Positions 1,406-30,728 of a DNA stretch of 33,991 nt are shown one piece after another. The stretch covers positions 1-33,991 of the forward strand of contig JAOULM010000001.1 in assembly GCA_029882015.1 (NCBI GenBank). The letters run 5' to 3'. A program made the translations under genes and the position numbers. The notes under the pieces are model-generated. The model did no database searches, was not told where the DNA came from, and saw only the letters and a program-made list of their open reading frames with translations. This DNA is from Candidatus Nomurabacteria bacterium. GTDB taxonomy: Bacteria > Patescibacteriota > Minisyncoccia > Phycocordibacterales > UBA1006. Position 1 is the first letter of the stretch. Each line of letters opens with the position of its first letter.

Positions 1406-3058
1406 ATGAAATCAAACGACATCCGCGAGAAATTTTTGACCTTTATGGAATCCAAGGGGCACACTCGTGCGCCCAGCTCATCATTGATTCCGACTGATCC
1501 ATCGGTTTTGTTTACCACTGCAGGAATGCAGCAGTTTAAGCCATATTATATGGGGGAAAAATCTCCATACGGGGATATGGCAACCAGCGTACAAAAATGT
1601 ATGCGTACTAGCGATATCGACGAGATAGGTGACGCCACCCATTTGACATTTTTCGAGATGTTGGGAAATTTTGCTTTTAATAATGCGGTGTCAAAACGGC
1701 AGGCTATAGAATGGGGGCATGAATTTATCACCAGCGAAATGAAATTGAAAATAGATTACATTACTATTTTTGGAGGAGATGATATAACTGCTCGTGATAG
1801 CGAATCCGAAGACATCTGGAAATCAATCGATGCAAGTCTAGATATCCGCCCCGAAGGGCGCGATGATGTATTCTGGGGGCCAACTGGTGACGAGGGTCCA
1901 TGTGGTCCAACAACCGAAATTTACATTGACGGAGTAGAGATTTGGAATATTGTTTTCAATGAATATTATTGTGACAAAGAAAAAAATTACAAAAAATTAG
2001 AAAATTTTGGTATTGATACTGGGATGGGATTGGAGCGGTTAGCTGTTGCTGTCCAAGGGGTAAATAATGTTTTTGAAACAGATTTGTTTAACAATGAATT
2101 AGACAAAGAAGATAGAATTGTTGCCGACCATGTTCGTTCCGCTGTATTTTTGGCGATTGACGGCGTGCACCCATCTAATACTGGGCAGGGATACATATTG
2201 CGACGCCTCATTCGCAGGGCTGTATTTTATTCTCAAAAAAATGACACACTAATAAAAGATAACATTGATTTTGTCTGGAATAAATTTTCTGATGTTTATG
2301 AAAAAGACTTTGCCGGAGATTATGAAACGGTCGTCGAGGTAATAGAAAAAGAAAAGAAAAACTTTGAATCTACTTTGGATCGCGCCGTCAGAGAGTTCGA
2401 AAAAAGAAGTGCTTCTGATCTTAGTGGAAAAGATGTATTTGAATTGTTCACCACATATGGAATGCCTTTTGAAATGACGCGGGAACTGGCCCACGGAAAA
2501 GGACTCGAGGCAGATGTCGACGGGGCTTATTCAGAATTCGAACAACACAAAGAATTATCAAAAACAGCTAGCGCGGGGAAATTCAAGGGGGGTATGTCTG
2601 ATGCTGGTGACCCACAGGTTACCAAATTACACACCGCACACCATCTATTGCTGGCTGCACTGCAGCAGGTTCTGGGACAGGACGTTAAACAACGAGGGAG
2701 CAACATCACATCTGAACGGTTACGTATTGATTTTAATTTTGACCGCAAAATGACCGACGATGAAAAACAGCAGGTCAATGATTTGGTGAATGGATGGATT
2801 GCTGAGGGACTACCCGTCATTAAAAAAACTATGCCAAAAGACGAAGCCGAGGCGTTGGGAGCCGAAATGGAATTTGGGGTGAAATATCCCGACACTGTGG
2901 ATGTCTATTTTATAGAAAATAAAAATGGAGAAATAATTTCCAAGGAATTCTGTGGTGGTCCGCATATTACGAACACCAGCGAGCTGGGAACATTCAGAAT
3001 CAAAAAAGAAGAATCCAGTTCGGCTGGAGTACGACGAATCAAGGCTGTTCTTGAATAA
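1406..3058 (+). CDS. alaS: alanyl-tRNA synthetase, minimised form (550 aa, no C-Ala domain)
   Basis: N-terminus MKSNDIREKFLxFxESKGH, FTTAGMQQFKPYY, GNFAF. Editing-site motifs HTAHHLL and CGGPHI. ATG 1406 preferred over 1370 because a TTGCCA-17-TATACT promoter lies at 1370-1398. Confidence 0.95.
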   Translation: MKSNDIREKFLTFMESKGHTRAPSSSLIPTDPSVLFTTAGMQQFKPYYMGEKSPYGDMATSVQKCMRTSDIDEIGDATHLTFFEMLGNFAFNNAVSKRQAIEWGHEFITSEMKLKIDYITIFGGDDITARDSESEDIWKSIDASLDIRPEGRDDVFWGPTGDEGPCGPTTEIYIDGVEIWNIVFNEYYCDKEKNYKKLENFGIDTGMGLERLAVAVQGVNNVFETDLFNNELDKEDRIVADHVRSAVFLAIDGVHPSNTGQGYILRRLIRRAVFYSQKNDTLIKDNIDFVWNKFSDVYEKDFAGDYETVVEVIEKEKKNFESTLDRAVREFEKRSASDLSGKDVFELFTTYGMPFEMTRELAHGKGLEADVDGAYSEFEQHKELSKTASAGKFKGGMSDAGDPQVTKLHTAHHLLLAALQQVLGQDVKQRGSNITSERLRIDFNFDRKMTDDEKQQVNDLVNGWIAEGLPVIKKTMPKDEAEALGAEMEFGVKYPDTVDVYFIENKNGEIISKEFCGGPHITNTSELGTFRIKKEESSSAGVRRIKAVLE

Positions 3059-3099: not shown

Positions 3100-3615
3100 A
3101 TGGAAACTACATTGTCATTAGAAAATTTTTGTAAAAAATATTATTCATTTGTTTATAACAGATCTTTGCGTTTAACAAAAAATAAAGATAAAGCATTGGA
3201 TTTAACGCAGGATGTTTTTGTCAGAGTTTGTATATCATTTGATACTTTGGATCAAAGTCTGGCTATATTCGGCTGGCTTGCCAAAATAACAAAAAATAGG
3301 TTTTTAGATATTGCAAGATCTGATGAAGCAAAAAAAAGAAAAAGAGAACACATAGATGATATTGGCGAGTGCGCCAGCAAACTCTACTCGCCAGAACGAC
3401 CTATTTATCTAGATCTAGACATAGAAGATTTTATTATGATGCTGAATGAAAACGGTAACCATGTGGAATCTTGTCTTTATCTTGATCTTCAGAATTACGA
3501 CAAGGTTGCAGAACATTTGGATATCCCTGTTGGCACTGTAAAGAGCAGAGTACACAGACAGAGAAAATTAGCACAAAATAAATTTCCTTTGTACAGAAAA
3601 AATTTTAATATTTAA
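3100..3615 (+). CDS. RNA polymerase sigma factor, sigma-70 ECF-like (regions 2 and 4 only)
   Basis: Region 2-like LDLTQDVFVRV...WLAKITKNRFLDIAR. Region 4 HTH LDIPVGTVKSRVHRQRKLA. One of the few genes with a strong SD (AAAGGAGG, 3081-3088). Confidence 0.8.
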   Translation: METTLSLENFCKKYYSFVYNRSLRLTKNKDKALDLTQDVFVRVCISFDTLDQSLAIFGWLAKITKNRFLDIARSDEAKKRKREHIDDIGECASKLYSPERPIYLDLDIEDFIMMLNENGNHVESCLYLDLQNYDKVAEHLDIPVGTVKSRVHRQRKLAQNKFPLYRKNFNI

Positions 3616-6156: not shown

Positions 6157-6177
6157 TCGTAATTTTTTTTGTAGTAT
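6149..6177 (+). promoter_or_regulatory. promoter of infA (TTGACT-17-TAGTAT); ATG 12 nt after the -10
   Basis: Hexamers at 6149-6154 and 6172-6177. The -35 overlaps the upstream stop codon. Confidence 0.5.
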
Positions 6178-6189
6178 AGCAACATACAC

Positions 6190-6429
6190 ATGAGCGATAA
6201 ATCAGAAGAAATTAGAAAACAGGGGATTGTCAGCGAAGCGCTTCCAAACACTATGTTTCGTGTGCTTTTAAACCTAGAAGAGGGTGCTGATGGCGACCAG
6301 CGAGAAGAGATTATATCTTATCTGGCTGGTAAAATGCGTATGCACAGAATACGTGTTATGGTCGGTGACAAGGTAGAAGTTGTCATTGATCCGTACGGGG
6401 GCAAGGCAAGACTTGTCAAACGATTGTAA
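6190..6429 (+). CDS. infA: translation initiation factor IF-1 (with short acidic insertion)
   Basis: GIVSEALPNTMFRV...YLAGKMRMHRIRVMVGDKVEVVIDPY matches the IF-1 S1-fold. EEGADGDQREE is extra relative to the E. coli and Bacillus IF-1 as I recall them. Confidence 0.9.
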   Translation: MSDKSEEIRKQGIVSEALPNTMFRVLLNLEEGADGDQREEIISYLAGKMRMHRIRVMVGDKVEVVIDPYGGKARLVKRL

Positions 6430-6454
6430 ATAAGCTATACTCGCACACAGCTTT

Positions 6455-6481
6455 AGGAAGTCTGCTTCCTTTGCTTTTTTT
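6455..6481 (+). terminator. probable terminator after infA
   Basis: AGGAAG-tctg-CTTCCT followed by TTGCTTTTTTT. Confidence 0.5.
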
Positions 6482-6519
6482 ATCCCTATATATATGGGGT
6501 AAACACACATTTTTTTATT

Positions 6520-6642
6520 ATGAAAGTAAAAACATCGATCAAGAAAATAGACCTAGCTCAAGGGGACAAGATTGTCCGCCGTCGCGGTCGACTGTTTCGA
6601 ATTAATAAAGCTAACCCTCGTCGCAAACTGCGACAAGGATAA
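6520..6642 (+). CDS. rpmJ: 50S ribosomal protein L36, cysteine-less (C-minus) form, 40 aa; below the ORF-track length cutoff
   Basis: My translation is [40 protein letters not shown]. It has the L36 hallmarks MKV.xSxKK...RRxGR...NP..K.RQG and the canonical infA-rpmJ-rpsM position. Confidence 0.85.
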
Positions 6643-6656
6643 TCAATTTATTTTTT

Positions 6657-10392: not shown

Positions 10393-10410
10393 AACTCAGA
10401 AATCAAAAAA

Positions 10411-10434
10411 ACCACCCTCAGGTGGTTTTTTCTT
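10411..10434 (+). terminator. rho-independent terminator after rpsI
   Basis: ACCACC-ctca-GGTGGT followed by TTTTTTCTTT, preceded by an A-run. Confidence 0.7.
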
Positions 10435-10450
10435 TGCTCTGGTAAATATA

Positions 10451-10780
10451 TCCTCCTCCCCTATGTAGGGGAGGTGCCGAGGAACGAGGCGGAGGGGTAT
10501 CAGACATAACCACCCAAACCCCCGTCTTCCCGGGCTCCGACCCGGGATCCAGAAACATCCCTACCAACCCTCAAGTGTCATCCCCGCGCAGACGGGGATC
10601 TTGTTTTAATTCTTTTCTTTTTTCTTGGCAAAAAAGAAACAAAAACCCAAGGCCTGTACCGAACTCTCTCAGAATTATCTAAAACTACATTCGTTATTTT
10701 TCAGGGGGCACTACGTTAGCCTGCTGAAAAATACCTGCGGACACTCATTCCATTTTGAAATTCTGGTTCGTTCGATAGGG
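10451..10780 (+). repeat. mosaic structured intergenic repeat, copy A (modules H1, H2, H3, E)
   Basis: H1 is 10451-10500. H2 (10522-10553) is identical to 14959-14990. H3 (10611-10641) is identical to 14992-15022. E (10647-10780) aligns with 15108-15242. An extra hairpin ATCCCCG/CGGGGAT lies at 10580-10599. Confidence 0.85.
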
Positions 10781-10811
10781 GTCGAATCCTCGCGCTAAAT
10801 TTTGGAATATT

Positions 10812-10839
10812 AAAAAACCCTCGCAATAGCGGGGTTTTT
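10812..10839. terminator. bidirectional hairpin terminator at the end of the minus-strand PaaX-like/DKNYY operon
   Basis: A6-CCC(T)CGC-aata-GCGGGG-T5. Confidence 0.6.
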
Positions 10840-14881: not shown

Positions 14882-14889
14882 CACAACCA

Positions 14890-15242
14890 TCCTCCTACCC
14901 TATGCAGGGGAGGTGCCCGTAGGGCGGAGGGGTATTAAACATAAAATACCAAACCTATCCGTCTTCCCGGGCTCCGACCCGGGATCCAGAATCTTTTCTT
15001 TTTTCTTGGCAAAAAAGAAACACCCGATGAAATATATTCGCTACCGCTCATTATTTCCCTGGATAAAAACAATATAGTCACTATGTTCCTTATTGTTAGT
15101 TAAAAATCCAAGGCCTGTATCTCGCTCTCTCAGAATTTCTAAAACTCTCGTTCACTATTTTTCAAGGGGCACTCCGTATAGCCTTTTGAAAAATTAAAAA
15201 CGTTCACTTTCGTTTTGAAATTCTGGTTCGCTCGATAAGGGC
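14890..15242 (+). repeat. mosaic structured intergenic repeat, copy B (modules H1, H2, H3, insert, E)
   Basis: Same module order as copy A. It has an ~85-nt unique AT-rich insert (15023-15107) between H3 and E. Confidence 0.85.
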
Positions 15243-15287
15243 CAAAGGACGTGTTAGACTATGGAATCTAAATAGCACCACCCCCGA

Positions 15288-15308
15288 CCCCTCCTCAAAG
15301 AGGAGGGG
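15288..15308 (+). repeat. perfect 9-bp hairpin CCCCTCCTC-aaa-GAGGAGGGG upstream of dnaJ (related to the H1 stem motif)
   Basis: Read directly from the sequence. The 3' arm is SD-like but ends 17 nt before the ATG at 15326. Confidence 0.7.
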
Positions 15309-15325
15309 AGGGACACTTGAAACTT

Positions 15326-21419: not shown

Positions 21420-22865
21420 TTAGAATCCATCAACCATGTCTGCATCTGAGCTGGCGCCCATGCTAAAGTCATTAAAATCATTTTTTTCCAAGTCGCTAAA
21501 CGATGTTTTATCTCCATCGAAATACAACTCGACGTCACCCACGGCTCCGTTACGGTGTTTGGCGATAACGATGTCGGCGACACCTGGTCGGTCGGTGTCT
21601 GGGTTTACACGCTCCTCGCGGTGTACGAACATAACCACATCGGCATCTTGCTCTAGGGCCCCTGAATCACGCAGGTCAGACAGTCGTGGTTTCCCCCCAC
21701 GGGCCTCGACGGCACGCGAGAGCTGTGACAATGCCAATATGGGTACATCCAGCTCACGAGCAAGCCCCTTGATAGACCTGGAGATTTCGGATACCTGATT
21801 CACCATAGAATCATAGTTTTTTGTTGGGTGCATCAACTGCAAGTAGTCAATAATCAATAACCCTAAACCATGCTCGGCTTTCAGACGACGCGCAGTTGAT
21901 CGCATACGTAGAACATTGTTTCCTGGTTGATCATCGATAAAAATTGGTGCAGATGACATAGTGCTCATGGCGTCTTGGATTTTCAAAAAATCGTCTTCTT
22001 TTAATCCTGTACCTGTTCGCATTTTCCATGCGTCGACGCCGGCCTGGGCCGATAACATTCGGTCAACCAATGATCCGGCGCTCATCTCCAGAGAGAAAAA
22101 TCCAACAGGAATATTATGTTCGACAGATGCCTTGCGGGCAATATCCAGCGCAAACGCTGTCTTACCCATGGATGGTCGTCCCGCCAACAAGATCATGTCA
22201 GATTTTTGCAAACCAGATAACATCTTGTCGATGTCTTTGAATCCTGTGGGTACTCCGCGCAGTCCTTCTTTGGCTTCGTGTAATTTTTCTATGCGGTCCC
22301 ACGCCTCGGGTAACAATGTTTTGATACCGATAAATCTGTCTGTGTGATGGGCTGCAGCGGTAACCGCAAAGACTGCTTTTTCTGCGGTATCCAAAACCAT
22401 TTCAATATCATCTTTTTCGTTGAACCCTAGCTCGGTCAACAGGTCACCCGTGTTGATCAGCTCACGCAACAGATGTTTCCGAGAAACAACACCAGCATAA
22501 TGGTTTACGTTTGTGGATGTTGGAACAGATGCACTAATATCTGCCAAATACGAAACACCGCCAATCATATCCAAATGATTTTTCTCGCGTAGTCGGTTGG
22601 ATACCGATACGGTGTCGATGGGTTCTCCTTTGTTGCTCAGCTCGACCATGGTTTGGAAAATCATTCGATGTTTTTCTGCATAAAAAGAATCCTCGGAAAC
22701 AATATCCAGGATATCATTCAATGCTACAGGCCGTAGCATAATAGAACCCAACAGAGCCTTTTCCGAGTTCAAATCCTGTGGTGGCACACGCAAAGGCGAC
22801 ATCGTTGATTTTTGCGCCTGACTATCATGTGATTGATTTTGGTTGTTGTATGGTTGCTTGGACAT
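21420..22865 (-). CDS. dnaB: replicative DNA helicase DnaB
   Basis: PPQDLNSEKALLGSIMLRP, Walker A LAGRPSMGKTAFALD, LLIIDYLQLM, LSQLSRAVE. Start set at MSKQ (22865) because an extended -10 (TGcTACAAT, 22874-22882) lies 8 nt upstream. The ORF track start at 22883 is an alternative. Confidence 0.93.
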   Translation of the reverse strand: MSKQPYNNQNQSHDSQAQKSTMSPLRVPPQDLNSEKALLGSIMLRPVALNDILDIVSEDSFYAEKHRMIFQTMVELSNKGEPIDTVSVSNRLREKNHLDMIGGVSYLADISASVPTSTNVNHYAGVVSRKHLLRELINTGDLLTELGFNEKDDIEMVLDTAEKAVFAVTAAAHHTDRFIGIKTLLPEAWDRIEKLHEAKEGLRGVPTGFKDIDKMLSGLQKSDMILLAGRPSMGKTAFALDIARKASVEHNIPVGFFSLEMSAGSLVDRMLSAQAGVDAWKMRTGTGLKEDDFLKIQDAMSTMSSAPIFIDDQPGNNVLRMRSTARRLKAEHGLGLLIIDYLQLMHPTKNYDSMVNQVSEISRSIKGLARELDVPILALSQLSRAVEARGGKPRLSDLRDSGALEQDADVVMFVHREERVNPDTDRPGVADIVIAKHRNGAVGDVELYFDGDKTSFSDLEKNDFNDFSMGASSDADMVDGF

Positions 22866-22873
22866 GTAAATTG

Positions 22874-22882
22874 ATTGTAGCA
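22874..22882 (-). promoter_or_regulatory. extended -10 promoter of dnaB (TGcTACAAT on minus strand); ATG 22865 is 8 nt downstream
   Basis: Plus-strand attgtagca at 22874-22882. Confidence 0.45.
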
Positions 22883-22883
22883 C

Positions 22884-22923
22884 GCTAGGTTTTATTGGTT
22901 TTTAAAAAACCAATAAAACCTAG
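22884..22923. promoter_or_regulatory. perfect 40-bp palindrome (20+20, no spacer) immediately upstream of the dnaB -10 element
   Basis: gctaggttttattggttttt / aaaaaccaataaaacctagc, read directly from the sequence. Confidence 0.7.
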
Positions 22924-22958
22924 CTGGGGATTGTGTGGATAGAGACTTTTTAAAAGAC

Positions 22959-22987
22959 TTGACAAATCTATCTAAACATGCTATACT
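22959..22987 (+). promoter_or_regulatory. near-consensus promoter of RNA1 (TTGACA-17-TATACT)
   Basis: Hexamers at 22959-22964 and 22982-22987. Confidence 0.6.
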
Positions 22988-22993
22988 CATTTT

Positions 22994-23294
22994 CAATGGG
23001 TGGATTATTTGCTTGTCACAGTGACAGGGGATAATACCGTAAAACCCAGTATGTACCGGTTAATTCCTCCCCGACGTAGCGGGAGGTCATCAGTTGGTTA
23101 TGACAGAAACAAGCGTGCGAGGGTTTGAGCCTTATGACCATGTATGAGAAAGTTATTGCCGAGCATAACGACTGATAAGCGATCAAGGTTCCGCCAAGCT
23201 TACGGCACATATGATTGCTGTAAGTAGAGCAACAAGGGAACCTTTTCGGGAAATGCCCCCATCAATTTTTTTGATGGGGGTTTTGTTTTTTTTT
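22994..23294 (+). ncRNA. unassigned ~300-nt sRNA-like transcription unit (RNA1)
   Basis: Consensus promoter TTGACA-17-TATACT (22959-22987) and strong terminator CCCCCATCAA-ttttt-TTGATGGGGG plus T-run (23256-23294). Internal helices include AAGGTTCC/GGAACCTT and CCTCCC/GGGAGG. No credible CDS. Confidence 0.55.
23256..23294 (+). terminator. terminator of RNA1
   Basis: CCCCCATCAA-ttttt-TTGATGGGGG followed by TTTTGTTTTTTTTT. Confidence 0.8.
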
Positions 23295-23320
23295 GATAAA
23301 TAAAAATATTCTGATACTAT
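23293..23320 (+). promoter_or_regulatory. promoter of RNA2 (TTGATA-16-TACTAT)
   Basis: Hexamers at 23293-23298 and 23315-23320. Confidence 0.45.
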
Positions 23321-23326
23321 TGTGAT

Positions 23327-23536
23327 GTGGGTGAGTAACAAATCGTGCACCCCACGAGATGTCCCACACGCCCTGGAGGTAATGAGCCCAGGGCATCTTG
23401 GAAACCATAGATAGATATAATATCTATCTCAAATATAAGAGGGCGAGCTGTTCTGGATAACAGGGCGGCTCCAATAACGGCATAGGGCAAATGAACCTGT
23501 GTCTAGGACCCCAGAATTTTTGGGGTCTGTTTTTTT
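23327..23536 (+). ncRNA. unassigned ~210-nt sRNA or cis-leader upstream of trpS (RNA2)
   Basis: Promoter TTGATA-16-TACTAT (23293-23320). Hairpins GCCCTGG/CCAGGGC, AGATAGATA/TATCTATCT and CTGTT/AACAG. Terminator GACCCCA/TGGGGTC plus T7 (23507-23536). Confidence 0.5.
23507..23536 (+). terminator. terminator (or attenuator) of RNA2, 36 nt before trpS
   Basis: GACCCCA-gaatttt-TGGGGTC followed by TGTTTTTTT. Confidence 0.7.
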
Positions 23537-23563
23537 ACACAAAATTTTCAAATTTGGTACAAT
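23535..23563 (+). promoter_or_regulatory. possible proximal trpS promoter (TTACAC-17-TGgTACAAT); ATG 9 nt after the -10
   Basis: Hexamers at 23535-23540 and 23558-23563. Confidence 0.45.
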
Positions 23564-23572
23564 AGCAACTAT

Positions 23573-24538
23573 ATGGAAAAGAAAATTTTAGTATCAGGGG
23601 TCAAGCCAACAGGGCGTCCACATTTGGGGAATTATTTTGGTGCAATGAAACAATTTGTTGAATTACAGAACGAATATGATTCATACATTTTTTTGGCAAA
23701 CTTGCATGCATTAACAACAATCCAGGATGGCGAAACATTGCGCGAATTATCCCGCGAACTTCTTCTTGACTATTTGGCAATCGGTATCGACCCAGAAAAT
23801 GTTGTGATCTTTAATCAGTCAGATGTAAAACAACACGCTGAATTGGGATGGATATTTAACTGTATTACAACTATGCCGTATTTGATGCGCGCGCATTCAT
23901 TTAAAGACGCCGAAGCTAAAAACAAAGACATCAACGTTGGGGTGTTTGATTATCCAATGCTGATGGCAGCAGATATATTATTGTACGGTGCGGACGTAGT
24001 CCCAGTAGGTAAAGACCAGAAACAACATATCGAATTCACGCGCGATACTGCGCAGAAATTTAACAGTATTTTTGGTGAAACTTTTCAATTACCCAAAGCA
24101 CTCATTTTAGAATCTACCGAAACAATCCCCGGAACCGACGGACAAAAAATGTCCAAATCATACGGGAATACCATTCCATTGTTTGGAACTGACGACGAAA
24201 TCAAAACAGCAGTGATGAGCATCGTCACAGGATCTAATCCAAAAAACACACCGAACGATCCAACCGACACATTGTTTACTATTTTGGAACTATTTTTGAA
24301 TGACGATGACACGCCATATGTCCGCGGAAAATATGAATCAGGTGAAATGGGATACAAAGAAACCAAAGAACGTCTAATAACAGAAATTATTGAATTCGTG
24401 GAACCATTGCGAAAACGTCGCGCCGAATTTGCTCGCAGCCAAACACTACTCGACGAGATTCTGCGACAGGGAGCCGCCCGAGCCCGCGCCCGAGCTGAAG
24501 GGGTGATGGAAATCGTCCGCCACAAAGTAGGGATTTAA
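23573..24538 (+). CDS. trpS: tryptophanyl-tRNA synthetase
   Basis: GVKPTGRPHLGNYFGA (HIGH-like), ADILLYGADVVPVGKDQKQH, KMSKS. Confidence 0.95.
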   Translation: MEKKILVSGVKPTGRPHLGNYFGAMKQFVELQNEYDSYIFLANLHALTTIQDGETLRELSRELLLDYLAIGIDPENVVIFNQSDVKQHAELGWIFNCITTMPYLMRAHSFKDAEAKNKDINVGVFDYPMLMAADILLYGADVVPVGKDQKQHIEFTRDTAQKFNSIFGETFQLPKALILESTETIPGTDGQKMSKSYGNTIPLFGTDDEIKTAVMSIVTGSNPKNTPNDPTDTLFTILELFLNDDDTPYVRGKYESGEMGYKETKERLITEIIEFVEPLRKRRAEFARSQTLLDEILRQGAARARARAEGVMEIVRHKVGI

Positions 24539-26407: not shown

Positions 26408-26422
26408 AATATTAAAATTAAA

Positions 26423-26449
26423 ACGGACACAATTTGTGTCCGTTTTTTT
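26423..26449 (+). terminator. terminator after the ABC exporter gene
   Basis: ACGGACACA-att-TGTGTCCGT followed by T7. Confidence 0.8.
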
Positions 26450-26450
26450 A

Positions 26451-26479
26451 TTGCACAAATTTGGTTATTCTGGCATAAT
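26451..26479 (+). promoter_or_regulatory. promoter of the T-box leader (TTGCAC-17-TGgCATAAT)
   Basis: Hexamers at 26451-26456 and 26474-26479. Confidence 0.55.
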
Positions 26480-26485
26480 TGGGGT

Positions 26486-26640
26486 ATTCACTGATGAGCC
26501 TGGATGATAACAGGCGAGGTGTCAATTTTATATAAAGCGCCTTTTGCTACGTGTCGAGCGGCAAGGGGAATCGAGGTGGCACCGCGGATTTATATTCGTC
26601 CTCATAAATTATTCAGTTAGTTTGTGGGGAATTTTTTTAC
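26486..26640 (+). promoter_or_regulatory. T-box riboswitch leader (compact), apparent Asp specifier, controlling hydrolase-aspS
   Basis: Antiterminator: GAGG (26573-26576), 7-nt bulge UGGCACC (26577-26583, canonical UGGNACC), helix GCGGAU/AUUCGU, then CCUC (26600-26603). Competing terminator CCUCAUAAA/UUUGUGGGG plus U7 (26600-26638). 5' hairpin has a K-turn-like UGAUGA/CGAG base and the loop GAUGAUAA. Confidence 0.8.
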
Positions 26641-30602: not shown

Positions 30603-30728
30603 CCTCCTCCCCTATGTAGGGGAGGTGCCCGTAGGGCGGAGGGGTATCAATATATAAACACCTTAAAAACAATACCCCTCAGTCTCACTCGTACCTCGTT
30701 CGACAGCTCCCCTACATAGGGGAGCAGG
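30603..30728. repeat. GC-rich palindromic repeat pair (forward unit 30603-30647, inverted long unit 30672-30728) filling the scpA-scpB spacer
   Basis: The forward unit is near-identical to 14890-14935. The inverted unit is near-identical to 28649-28707. The architecture matches the pair inside mnmA. Confidence 0.85.

Follow-up and report, generated by a model that had tools for sequence, protein, structure and literature searches.

The dnaB-trpS spacer

The window analysed here is a stretch of 33,991 nucleotides, positions 1 to 33,991 of the forward strand of contig JAOULM010000001.1 in the assembly of Candidatus Nomurabacteria bacterium GCA_029882015.1. It is chromosomal DNA of an uncultured member of the Patescibacteria (CPR), of the Parcubacteria/Paceibacteria-like kind. 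Its DnaB and TrpRS proteins have best matches that are just 66% identical in protein searches, and those matches are labelled Parcubacteria, Wolfebacteria or Paceibacterota by their sources. The stretch is 100% identical in two further assemblies, ENA ERZ27296342 and Logan SRR7132771. Because the sequence is the same in three independent assemblies, that of RNA1, the feature with which we are concerned, is genuine and not an assembly artefact; since the two additional copies are identical, they hold no variation to analyse.

RNA1 lies inside a 704-nt spacer (22869-23572) flanked by the divergent genes dnaB, on the minus strand with its ATG at 22866-22868, and trpS, on the plus strand with its ATG at 23573. 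The genes beyond are housekeeping genes on both sides: cysS, corA, rplU and recR next to dnaB, and an ABC transporter and a class-II aminoacyl-tRNA synthetase (aaRS) next to trpS. Two promoter-terminator units stand in tandem within the spacer; RNA1 is the upstream one, and the other, RNA2, had been overlooked by the first-pass annotation. An apparent 500-nt spacer elsewhere in the window, at 6157-6656, contains by translation two small genes, infA (from 6191) and rpmJ (from 6521), which were overlooked under a 90-aa cut-off for open reading frames. Two long spacers, at 10393-10837 and 14882-15316, share repeated blocks (...tcctcccctatgtaggggaggtgcc..., cgtcttcccgggctccgacccgggatccaga, ttcttttcttttttcttggcaaaaaagaaaca and ttttgaaattctggttcg.tcgata), and a related piece is found near 30720; these blocks form an interspersed repeat family.

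Most genes in the window have a TATAAT-like -10 element 2-10 nt 5' of the ATG and lack a Shine-Dalgarno sequence, while a minority have GGAGG leaders, for example the genes starting at 3100 and 15317. With the -10 element standing so close to the ATG, much of the genome is probably leaderless or nearly so, and leaderless mRNAs seem to be of major importance in this bacterium. The trpS gene is of this type. Its own promoter, TTTACA-18-TGgTACAAT, occupies 23534-23575 on the plus strand, a span that already includes the ATG, and the same arrangement of -10 element followed by ATG is seen in all seven of the related genomes described below (L010, L011, L012, L013, L014, L095 and L100). Since the trpS mRNA is essentially leaderless, neither RNA1 nor RNA2 is needed as its leader.

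The dnaB control region (22869-22942, minus strand) likewise has an extended -10 element, TGCTACAAT, just before the dnaB ATG. Directly upstream of this element is a perfect palindrome of 41 nt (22884-22924; GCTAGGTTTTATTGGTTTTT A AAAAACCAATAAAACCTAGC), which is absent from the relatives and might serve as an operator or form a bidirectional hairpin. The interval separating the dnaB promoter from that of RNA1 contains a 9-mer resembling a DnaA box, CTATCCACA (22934-22942, minus strand, 8/9 match). DnaA-box-like sequences stand in the same relative place in two relatives, TGTGGATAG in L010 and GGTGGATAA in L100; 8/9 matches of this kind are not enriched in the window, where 13 were found and 11.7 are expected. 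The sole block conserved across the spacers of the window and the relatives is the dnaB -10 block itself (ATTGTAGCA, in 5/8; TGTAGCA, in 6/8).

Two tandem promoter-terminator units

The RNA1 promoter (22959-22987, plus strand) consists of a TTGACA -35 element at 22959-22964 and an extended -10 element, TGcTATACT, at 22979-22987, in which the TG is at 22979-22980 and TATACT at 22982-22987. The 17-nt spacer between the two elements contains ATCTATCTA. The first-pass annotation had called this a near-perfect TTGACA-17-TATACT promoter, and the description is accurate, as 11 of the 12 consensus bases are present together with the TG extension. First-order Markov simulation gives 1.08 sites per window expected by chance at 11/12, and 0.06 when the TG is also required. 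In the 34 kb of the window just three sites, the RNA1 promoter among them, have 11/12 or more together with the TG, and the remaining two are both upstream of real genes. The promoter is also of the type that directly precedes most gene starts in the window. RNA1 therefore has the kind of promoter that an independently transcribed intergenic sRNA gene should have.

At the other end of the unit is an intrinsic terminator (23255-23294, plus strand), which had been described as a GC-rich 10-bp hairpin with a T-run and which we find as such. Its G+C-rich stem, GCCCCCATCAA / TTGATGGGGGT, spans 23255-23281 with 10-11 bp, six of them G-C pairs, and a loop of 5, and it is followed by a T-rich tail of 14 nt, TTTTGTTTTTTTTT, reaching 23294. 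The terminator works on the plus strand only, because the minus side has no T-run. The stem begins 268 nt past the -10 element, so that a same-strand intrinsic terminator is present at the distance typical of an sRNA gene. No terminal inverted repeats or target-site duplications, as would mark a mobile element, were seen at the locus.

RNA2 (23293-23536, plus strand) has the promoter TTGATA-16-TGaTACTAT at 23293-23320, a body at about 23327-23505 and a terminator at 23506-23528 with a T-run. The unit, of about 210 nt, contains a perfect 10+10 hairpin, AGATAGATAT/ATATCTATCT, at 23409-23429. It folds well, with a z-score of -3.5 for the body and -6.0 for the whole unit. RNA2 has no Rfam match, and blastn and nhmmer found no homologue of it in the loci of the relatives. 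Because each of the two terminators precedes another promoter, that of RNA2 or that of trpS, both RNAs are insulated from trpS. A short motif, ATCTATCT/AGATAGAT, occurs in the RNA1 promoter spacer (22966-22974) and in each arm of the palindrome in RNA2 (23409-23429). It is seen again in two relatives, where the L095 cassette and the vestigial promoter of L013 have it in the promoter spacer, and it could represent a binding site for a regulator.

Coding capacity

The first-pass annotation saw no plausible coding sequence in RNA1, and our searches agree. Gene callers called nothing in the interval on two independent, identical assemblies. The dnaB-trpS spacer has five open reading frames of 42-64 aa, three of them overlapping RNA1, and none had a Pfam match; the 64-aa antisense frame had no homologue among 5.8 billion proteins. 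By these searches RNA1 has no coding capacity, as is expected of an sRNA gene.

A 12-codon open reading frame (MGGLFACHSDRG*, 22996-23034, plus strand) nevertheless deserves comment, as its ATG is 8 nt past the -10 element, a spacing typical of the leaderless genes here (8 nt for dnaB and 9 for trpS). RNA1 might on this basis be a leaderless mRNA for the 12-residue peptide with a long structured 3' region, although about 260 nt of untranslated RNA would then follow the frame. An ATG falls within that 5-nt range by chance in about 8% of cases, and the U and G of this AUG are paired within the first helix of the predicted fold (H1 in both the MFE and centroid folds, see below). None of the six cassettes in the relatives has an ATG at the corresponding position. 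We conclude that the frame is probably not translated and that its leaderless-like spacing is probably a coincidence, which makes a peptide-encoding RNA1 very improbable.

Known RNA families

At gathering scores, Rfam 15 gave no match in the entire window. When the E-value limit was raised to 10 for the region 22800-23650, no RNase P, tmRNA, SRP, 6S or T-box model appeared, and the matches on the spacer were limited to microRNAs and noise driven by palindromes or terminators (e.g. Spot 42 and PyrG). ARAGORN found no genes in the window, and the spacers in the loci of the relatives were likewise empty of Rfam matches. The scan against all of Rfam that had been proposed for RNA1 thus assigned it to no family, and the claim that no known Rfam family explains it holds for covariance models up to E 10.

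The scan is not blind to divergent RNAs of the CPR, because it picked up canonical T-boxes that score below the threshold. With the limit set at E 0.5, the sole match anywhere in the window was such a T-box leader, outside RNA1, at 26409-26606, and others were detected in L010, L012 and L100. The T-box in the window (plus strand) scores 38.4 bits (gathering score 93; E = 3e-5), has a canonical GAGGUGGCACCGCGG core and is upstream of a pair of genes for a hydrolase and a class-II aaRS (D/K/N). Similar short T-boxes are at 318-465 in L010 and 553-677 in L012 (both minus strand) and at 3203-3272 in L100 (plus strand). T-boxes of the CPR seem to fall under the Rfam cut-off.

RNA1 shares several properties with T-box leaders (RF00230). 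It precedes an aaRS gene, trpS, and points in the same direction; a length of 200-300 nt and a terminal intrinsic terminator are common to both; and this lineage uses T-boxes on other genes. In contrast to T-box leaders, in which the conserved T-box forms an antiterminator that competes with the terminator, RNA1 lacks both the T-box and an antiterminator and matches no T-box model at E up to 10 (the T-box core, AGGGUGGNACCGCG, is absent from both RNA1 and RNA2), and it has its own promoter and is followed by the RNA2 unit and then by the leaderless trpS promoter. Two other tryptophan-related devices were considered and rejected: TRAP-type repeats, by eye, since (G/U)AG counts are at expectation, and a Trp-rich leader peptide, since the 12-codon frame has no Trp codon.

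RNA1 had also been offered as a possible highly divergent housekeeping RNA, and the absence of RNase P RNA, tmRNA, SRP RNA and 6S RNA elsewhere in the 34-kb window (at Rfam gathering scores) leaves room for one of these four at this site. RNA1 is within their size range and, like them, has a promoter and terminator of its own in a small genome. The first-pass annotation had reported the hallmarks of RNase P RNA to be lacking. This was correct with regard to the covariance models, which are unmatched, but not to the letter, as RNA1 does contain ACAGAA (23103-23108) together with GCCUUAUGACC, a stretch that bears a faint resemblance to the 3' strand of RNase P helix P4 in E. coli M1 RNA. Unlike the genuine RNAs, RNA1 lacks both a model match and the defining motifs. 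For RNase P RNA, whose P4 combines a GGAAAGUCC-type CR-I with the ACAGAA..GGCUUA of CR-V, neither type A nor type B gave a covariance match, and RNA1 has no CR-I partner. A tmRNA joins a tRNA-like acceptor and T-arm to a tag reading frame; RNA1 has no T-loop, no acceptor end and no ARAGORN or Rfam match that would mark one. SRP RNA, whether 4.5S or Bacillus type, is recognised by a domain IV helix with a GNAR loop and conserved symmetric and asymmetric loops, and it was not among the models matching the spacer at E up to 10, and neither was 6S RNA (RF00013), whose paired ends form a long irregular rod with a large central bubble. Such a rod is not what single-sequence prediction gives for RNA1, which would fold as consecutive local hairpins with no closing stem. 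In addition, the relatives have either nothing or an unrelated sequence at the syntenic site, where an essential, conserved RNA would not be expected to vanish or change. For this reason we reject the housekeeping reading, which we consider extremely unlikely.

Folding of RNA1

The RNA1 body extends over 22994-23254 on the plus strand, with a 5' end that we place at about 22994-22996. All statements on its structure come from single-sequence thermodynamic prediction. The MFE and centroid folds give a series of hairpins: H1 at 22997-23048, H2 at 23067-23087, H3 at about 23095-23140, H4 at 23153-23170 and H5 at 23186-23245. The four helices that the first-pass annotation listed can all be traced in the sequence, about 2 nt from where it had put them: AAGGTTCC (23186-23193) with GGAACCTT (23238-23245), CCTCCC (23067-23072) with GGGAGG (23082-23087), GTTAT (23153-23157) with ATAAC (23166-23170), and CTTAC (23200-23204) with GTAAG (23221-23225).

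The description of RNA1 as structured fares less well once it is taken to mean structure beyond chance. The whole unit has a folding z-score of -3.9 to -4.15, mostly contributed by the terminator, while for the body without it (22994-23250) the z-score is -2.1 to -2.2; a value of -2.0 or below is also seen in 4 of the 22 control windows matched to it in length. The thermodynamic support for the predicted body is near the genome background, and its fold is thus weakly supported. Folding is better on the plus strand (z = -2.2, vs -1.3 for the complement), and the body has a G+C content of 46.5-47.1%, vs 21-31% in ordinary short spacers; these features fit an RNA product but are not proof of one.

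Relatives of the locus

We compared the window with seven related genomes that retain the trpS-dnaB arrangement. Scans of GTDB genomes and JGI metagenomes by DnaB patterns returned only relatives of 35-48% identity. The spacer varies considerably in length among these genomes. L010 (98 nt) and L014 (106 nt) have no cassette, and L013 (201 nt) has only a GC-rich hairpin, which we regard as a vestige. One cassette is present in L095 (about 358 nt) and in L012 (382 nt), and two in L011 (631 nt), in L100 (about 680 nt) and in the window (704 nt). There are thus eight cassettes in five genomes, and all eight are on the trpS strand. The cassettes of the relatives have promoters matching 9-11 of the 12 consensus bases, hairpin-rich bodies of 130-280 nt with z-scores of -2.4 to -6.2, and intrinsic terminators. 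The terminators of L011, L012 and the second unit of L100 were detected by the scan, while those of L095 and the first unit of L100 are visible in the MFE fold only. In each long spacer the last terminator abuts the leaderless trpS promoter.

This likeness in construction does not extend to sequence. Searches with blastn and nhmmer, the programs that had been suggested for finding relatives of RNA1, gave no homologue of RNA1 or RNA2 in the spacers of the relatives or in 118 kb of their loci. RNA1 has no paralogue in the window and no match in phage and plasmid collections, and its exact 15- and 16-mers in IMG/VR are chance matches that do not extend. The 10-mers that RNA1 shares with relatives (CCGACGTAGC with L012 and GGTTAATTCC with L011) are at chance level. 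Cassette bodies are unrelated in sequence throughout, those of L011 and L012 included despite the 77% identity of their DnaB proteins, and when the first or only cassette of each of the five genomes was folded to a consensus, no shared structure emerged (-1.5 kcal/mol). Among the relatives compared, RNA1 therefore shows neither the conserved sequence nor the conserved structure that would help to identify an sRNA gene.

In L011 both cassettes (2572-2615 and 2868-2875, minus strand) have the promoter TTGACT-16-TATACT, and both transcripts would open with GCAAGUUAU. A shared beginning of this sort may point to local duplication as a source of tandem units.

Interpretation

Species-specific intergenic sRNA genes have their own sigma-70 promoter and a Rho-independent terminator with a long U-tail, and they occupy variable spacers between core genes. 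RNA1 is similar to them in its near-consensus promoter, its terminator with a U-tail of at least 9, its non-coding and multi-hairpin nature, and the turnover of its spacer between conserved flanking genes. It differs in being about 300 nt long, longer than most base-pairing sRNAs, and in that no seed-target match was found in the window for the predicted RNA.

An independently transcribed non-coding RNA is the best reading of the locus because of the strength and upkeep of its signals, its insulation from trpS, its non-coding nature and its raised G+C content. RNA1 is most likely a fast-evolving sRNA gene of this kind, specific to this lineage of the Patescibacteria. The fuller statement, that it is a strongly transcribed, non-coding sRNA gene of about 295-300 nt acting in trans, is one that we put forward tentatively, as having a little less than an even chance of being correct. 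The unrelated but similarly built units at the same site in the relatives suggest that this spacer is a place of rapid birth and replacement of sRNA genes.

If this is so, RNA polymerase carrying the primary sigma factor would initiate at the near-consensus extended -10 element, giving a 5' end at about 22994-22996. The transcript would fold into five or six consecutive hairpins and be released at the intrinsic terminator, with its 3' end in the U-tract at 23286-23294, where the terminator hairpin and long U-tail would stabilise it. The single-stranded linkers, predicted at 23049-23066, 23141-23152 and 23171-23185, or the loops would then be free to base-pair with mRNAs or to bind a protein at another place in the cell. 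We infer the expression of RNA1, its action in trans and the existence of targets, the trans-acting role by analogy with species-specific intergenic sRNAs. Within the window, the start regions of 39 genes pair with RNA1 no better than with its shuffled versions (best duplex -51.8 kcal/mol, vs a shuffled mean of -51.3).

The failure to find a target among the gene starts of the window could also mean that the spacer is functionless DNA in fast turnover, either the remnant of an inserted element or former leader whose signals have yet to decay or a site of transcription without a selected product. L010 and L014 have nothing at the site and L013 almost nothing, spacer content is unrelated between genomes whose DnaB proteins are 77-81% identical, and some control windows fold as well as the RNA1 body, all of which would be expected of such DNA. 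Against this, it is unlikely that a promoter of 11/12 with a TG extension, together with a clean terminator, would have lasted in the absence of selection, and comparably strong signals are found in every cassette of the relatives. The G+C content of RNA1 far exceeds that of neutral short spacers, and a mobile origin has no support in terminal repeats or target-site duplications, in a second copy in the window, or in similarity to the phage, plasmid and IMG/VR collections. We consider functionless turnover unlikely, though deserving of some weight.

The conservation of promoters and terminators around bodies that share neither sequence nor a consensus structure raises the further possibility that the cassette acts in cis through its position and not through the sequence of its RNA. 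A strong promoter firing away from dnaB, its transcription halted shortly before trpS, might tune the two neighbouring leaderless promoters through transcription-driven supercoiling, polymerase occupancy or insulation; alternatively, the cassette might be an unrecognised trpS leader with conditional read-through. The orientation of all eight units in the five genomes on the trpS strand, with the last terminator always adjoining the trpS core promoter, is consistent with an action of this type. However, cumulative GC skew climbs along the entire window, and the co-orientation may reflect leading-strand bias. The trpS -10 element is beside the ATG in every genome, even in the cassette-free L010 and L014, and the cassette is therefore dispensable. 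There is also no Shine-Dalgarno sequence 5' of trpS with which a read-through transcript could be translated, and the T-box core is missing here although canonical cores were detected elsewhere in the window and in the relatives. A role in cis, by either route, thus seems to us improbable, about as much so as functionless turnover.

It is also conceivable that the dnaB-trpS cassettes constitute a single riboregulator family, fast-evolving but conserved in position, that controls trpS and/or dnaB. Such a family would have kept the promoter, the terminator and some structural or short-motif feature while the remainder diverged beyond detection by sequence; sensing of tRNA-Trp or tryptophan, or an action on leaderless translation, are examples of what it might do. 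We regard this as a long shot. The trans-acting sRNA gene remains our preferred reading, and neither of the two classifications first suggested for RNA1 is borne out. It is not a divergent housekeeping RNA, in view of the negative Rfam (E up to 10) and ARAGORN results and the empty or unrelated syntenic site, and the data do not make it a new class of sRNA, as a class needs members and covariation, no homologue was found and the fold of its body is near background. On our preferred reading RNA1 is an orphan member of a well-known kind of gene.

To our knowledge, almost nothing is known of RNA-based regulation in the CPR/Patescibacteria, whose tiny genomes encode few recognisable regulators, and our literature search found nothing on sRNAs of the CPR. 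RNA1 is currently a single-sequence prediction, to be valued as a candidate for mapping in metatranscriptomes and not as a discovery. If it were confirmed as a strongly expressed orphan, it would be among the first sRNA candidates for the CPR/Patescibacteria, and a cassette family tied to trpS and dnaB, if real, would represent a new type of riboregulator, linked to an aaRS gene, in these organisms. The recurrence of unrelated cassettes at one locus in a CPR clade is more interesting than RNA1 alone, since it provides, beside two leaderless essential genes, a concrete case in which the birth and replacement of sRNA genes may be followed.
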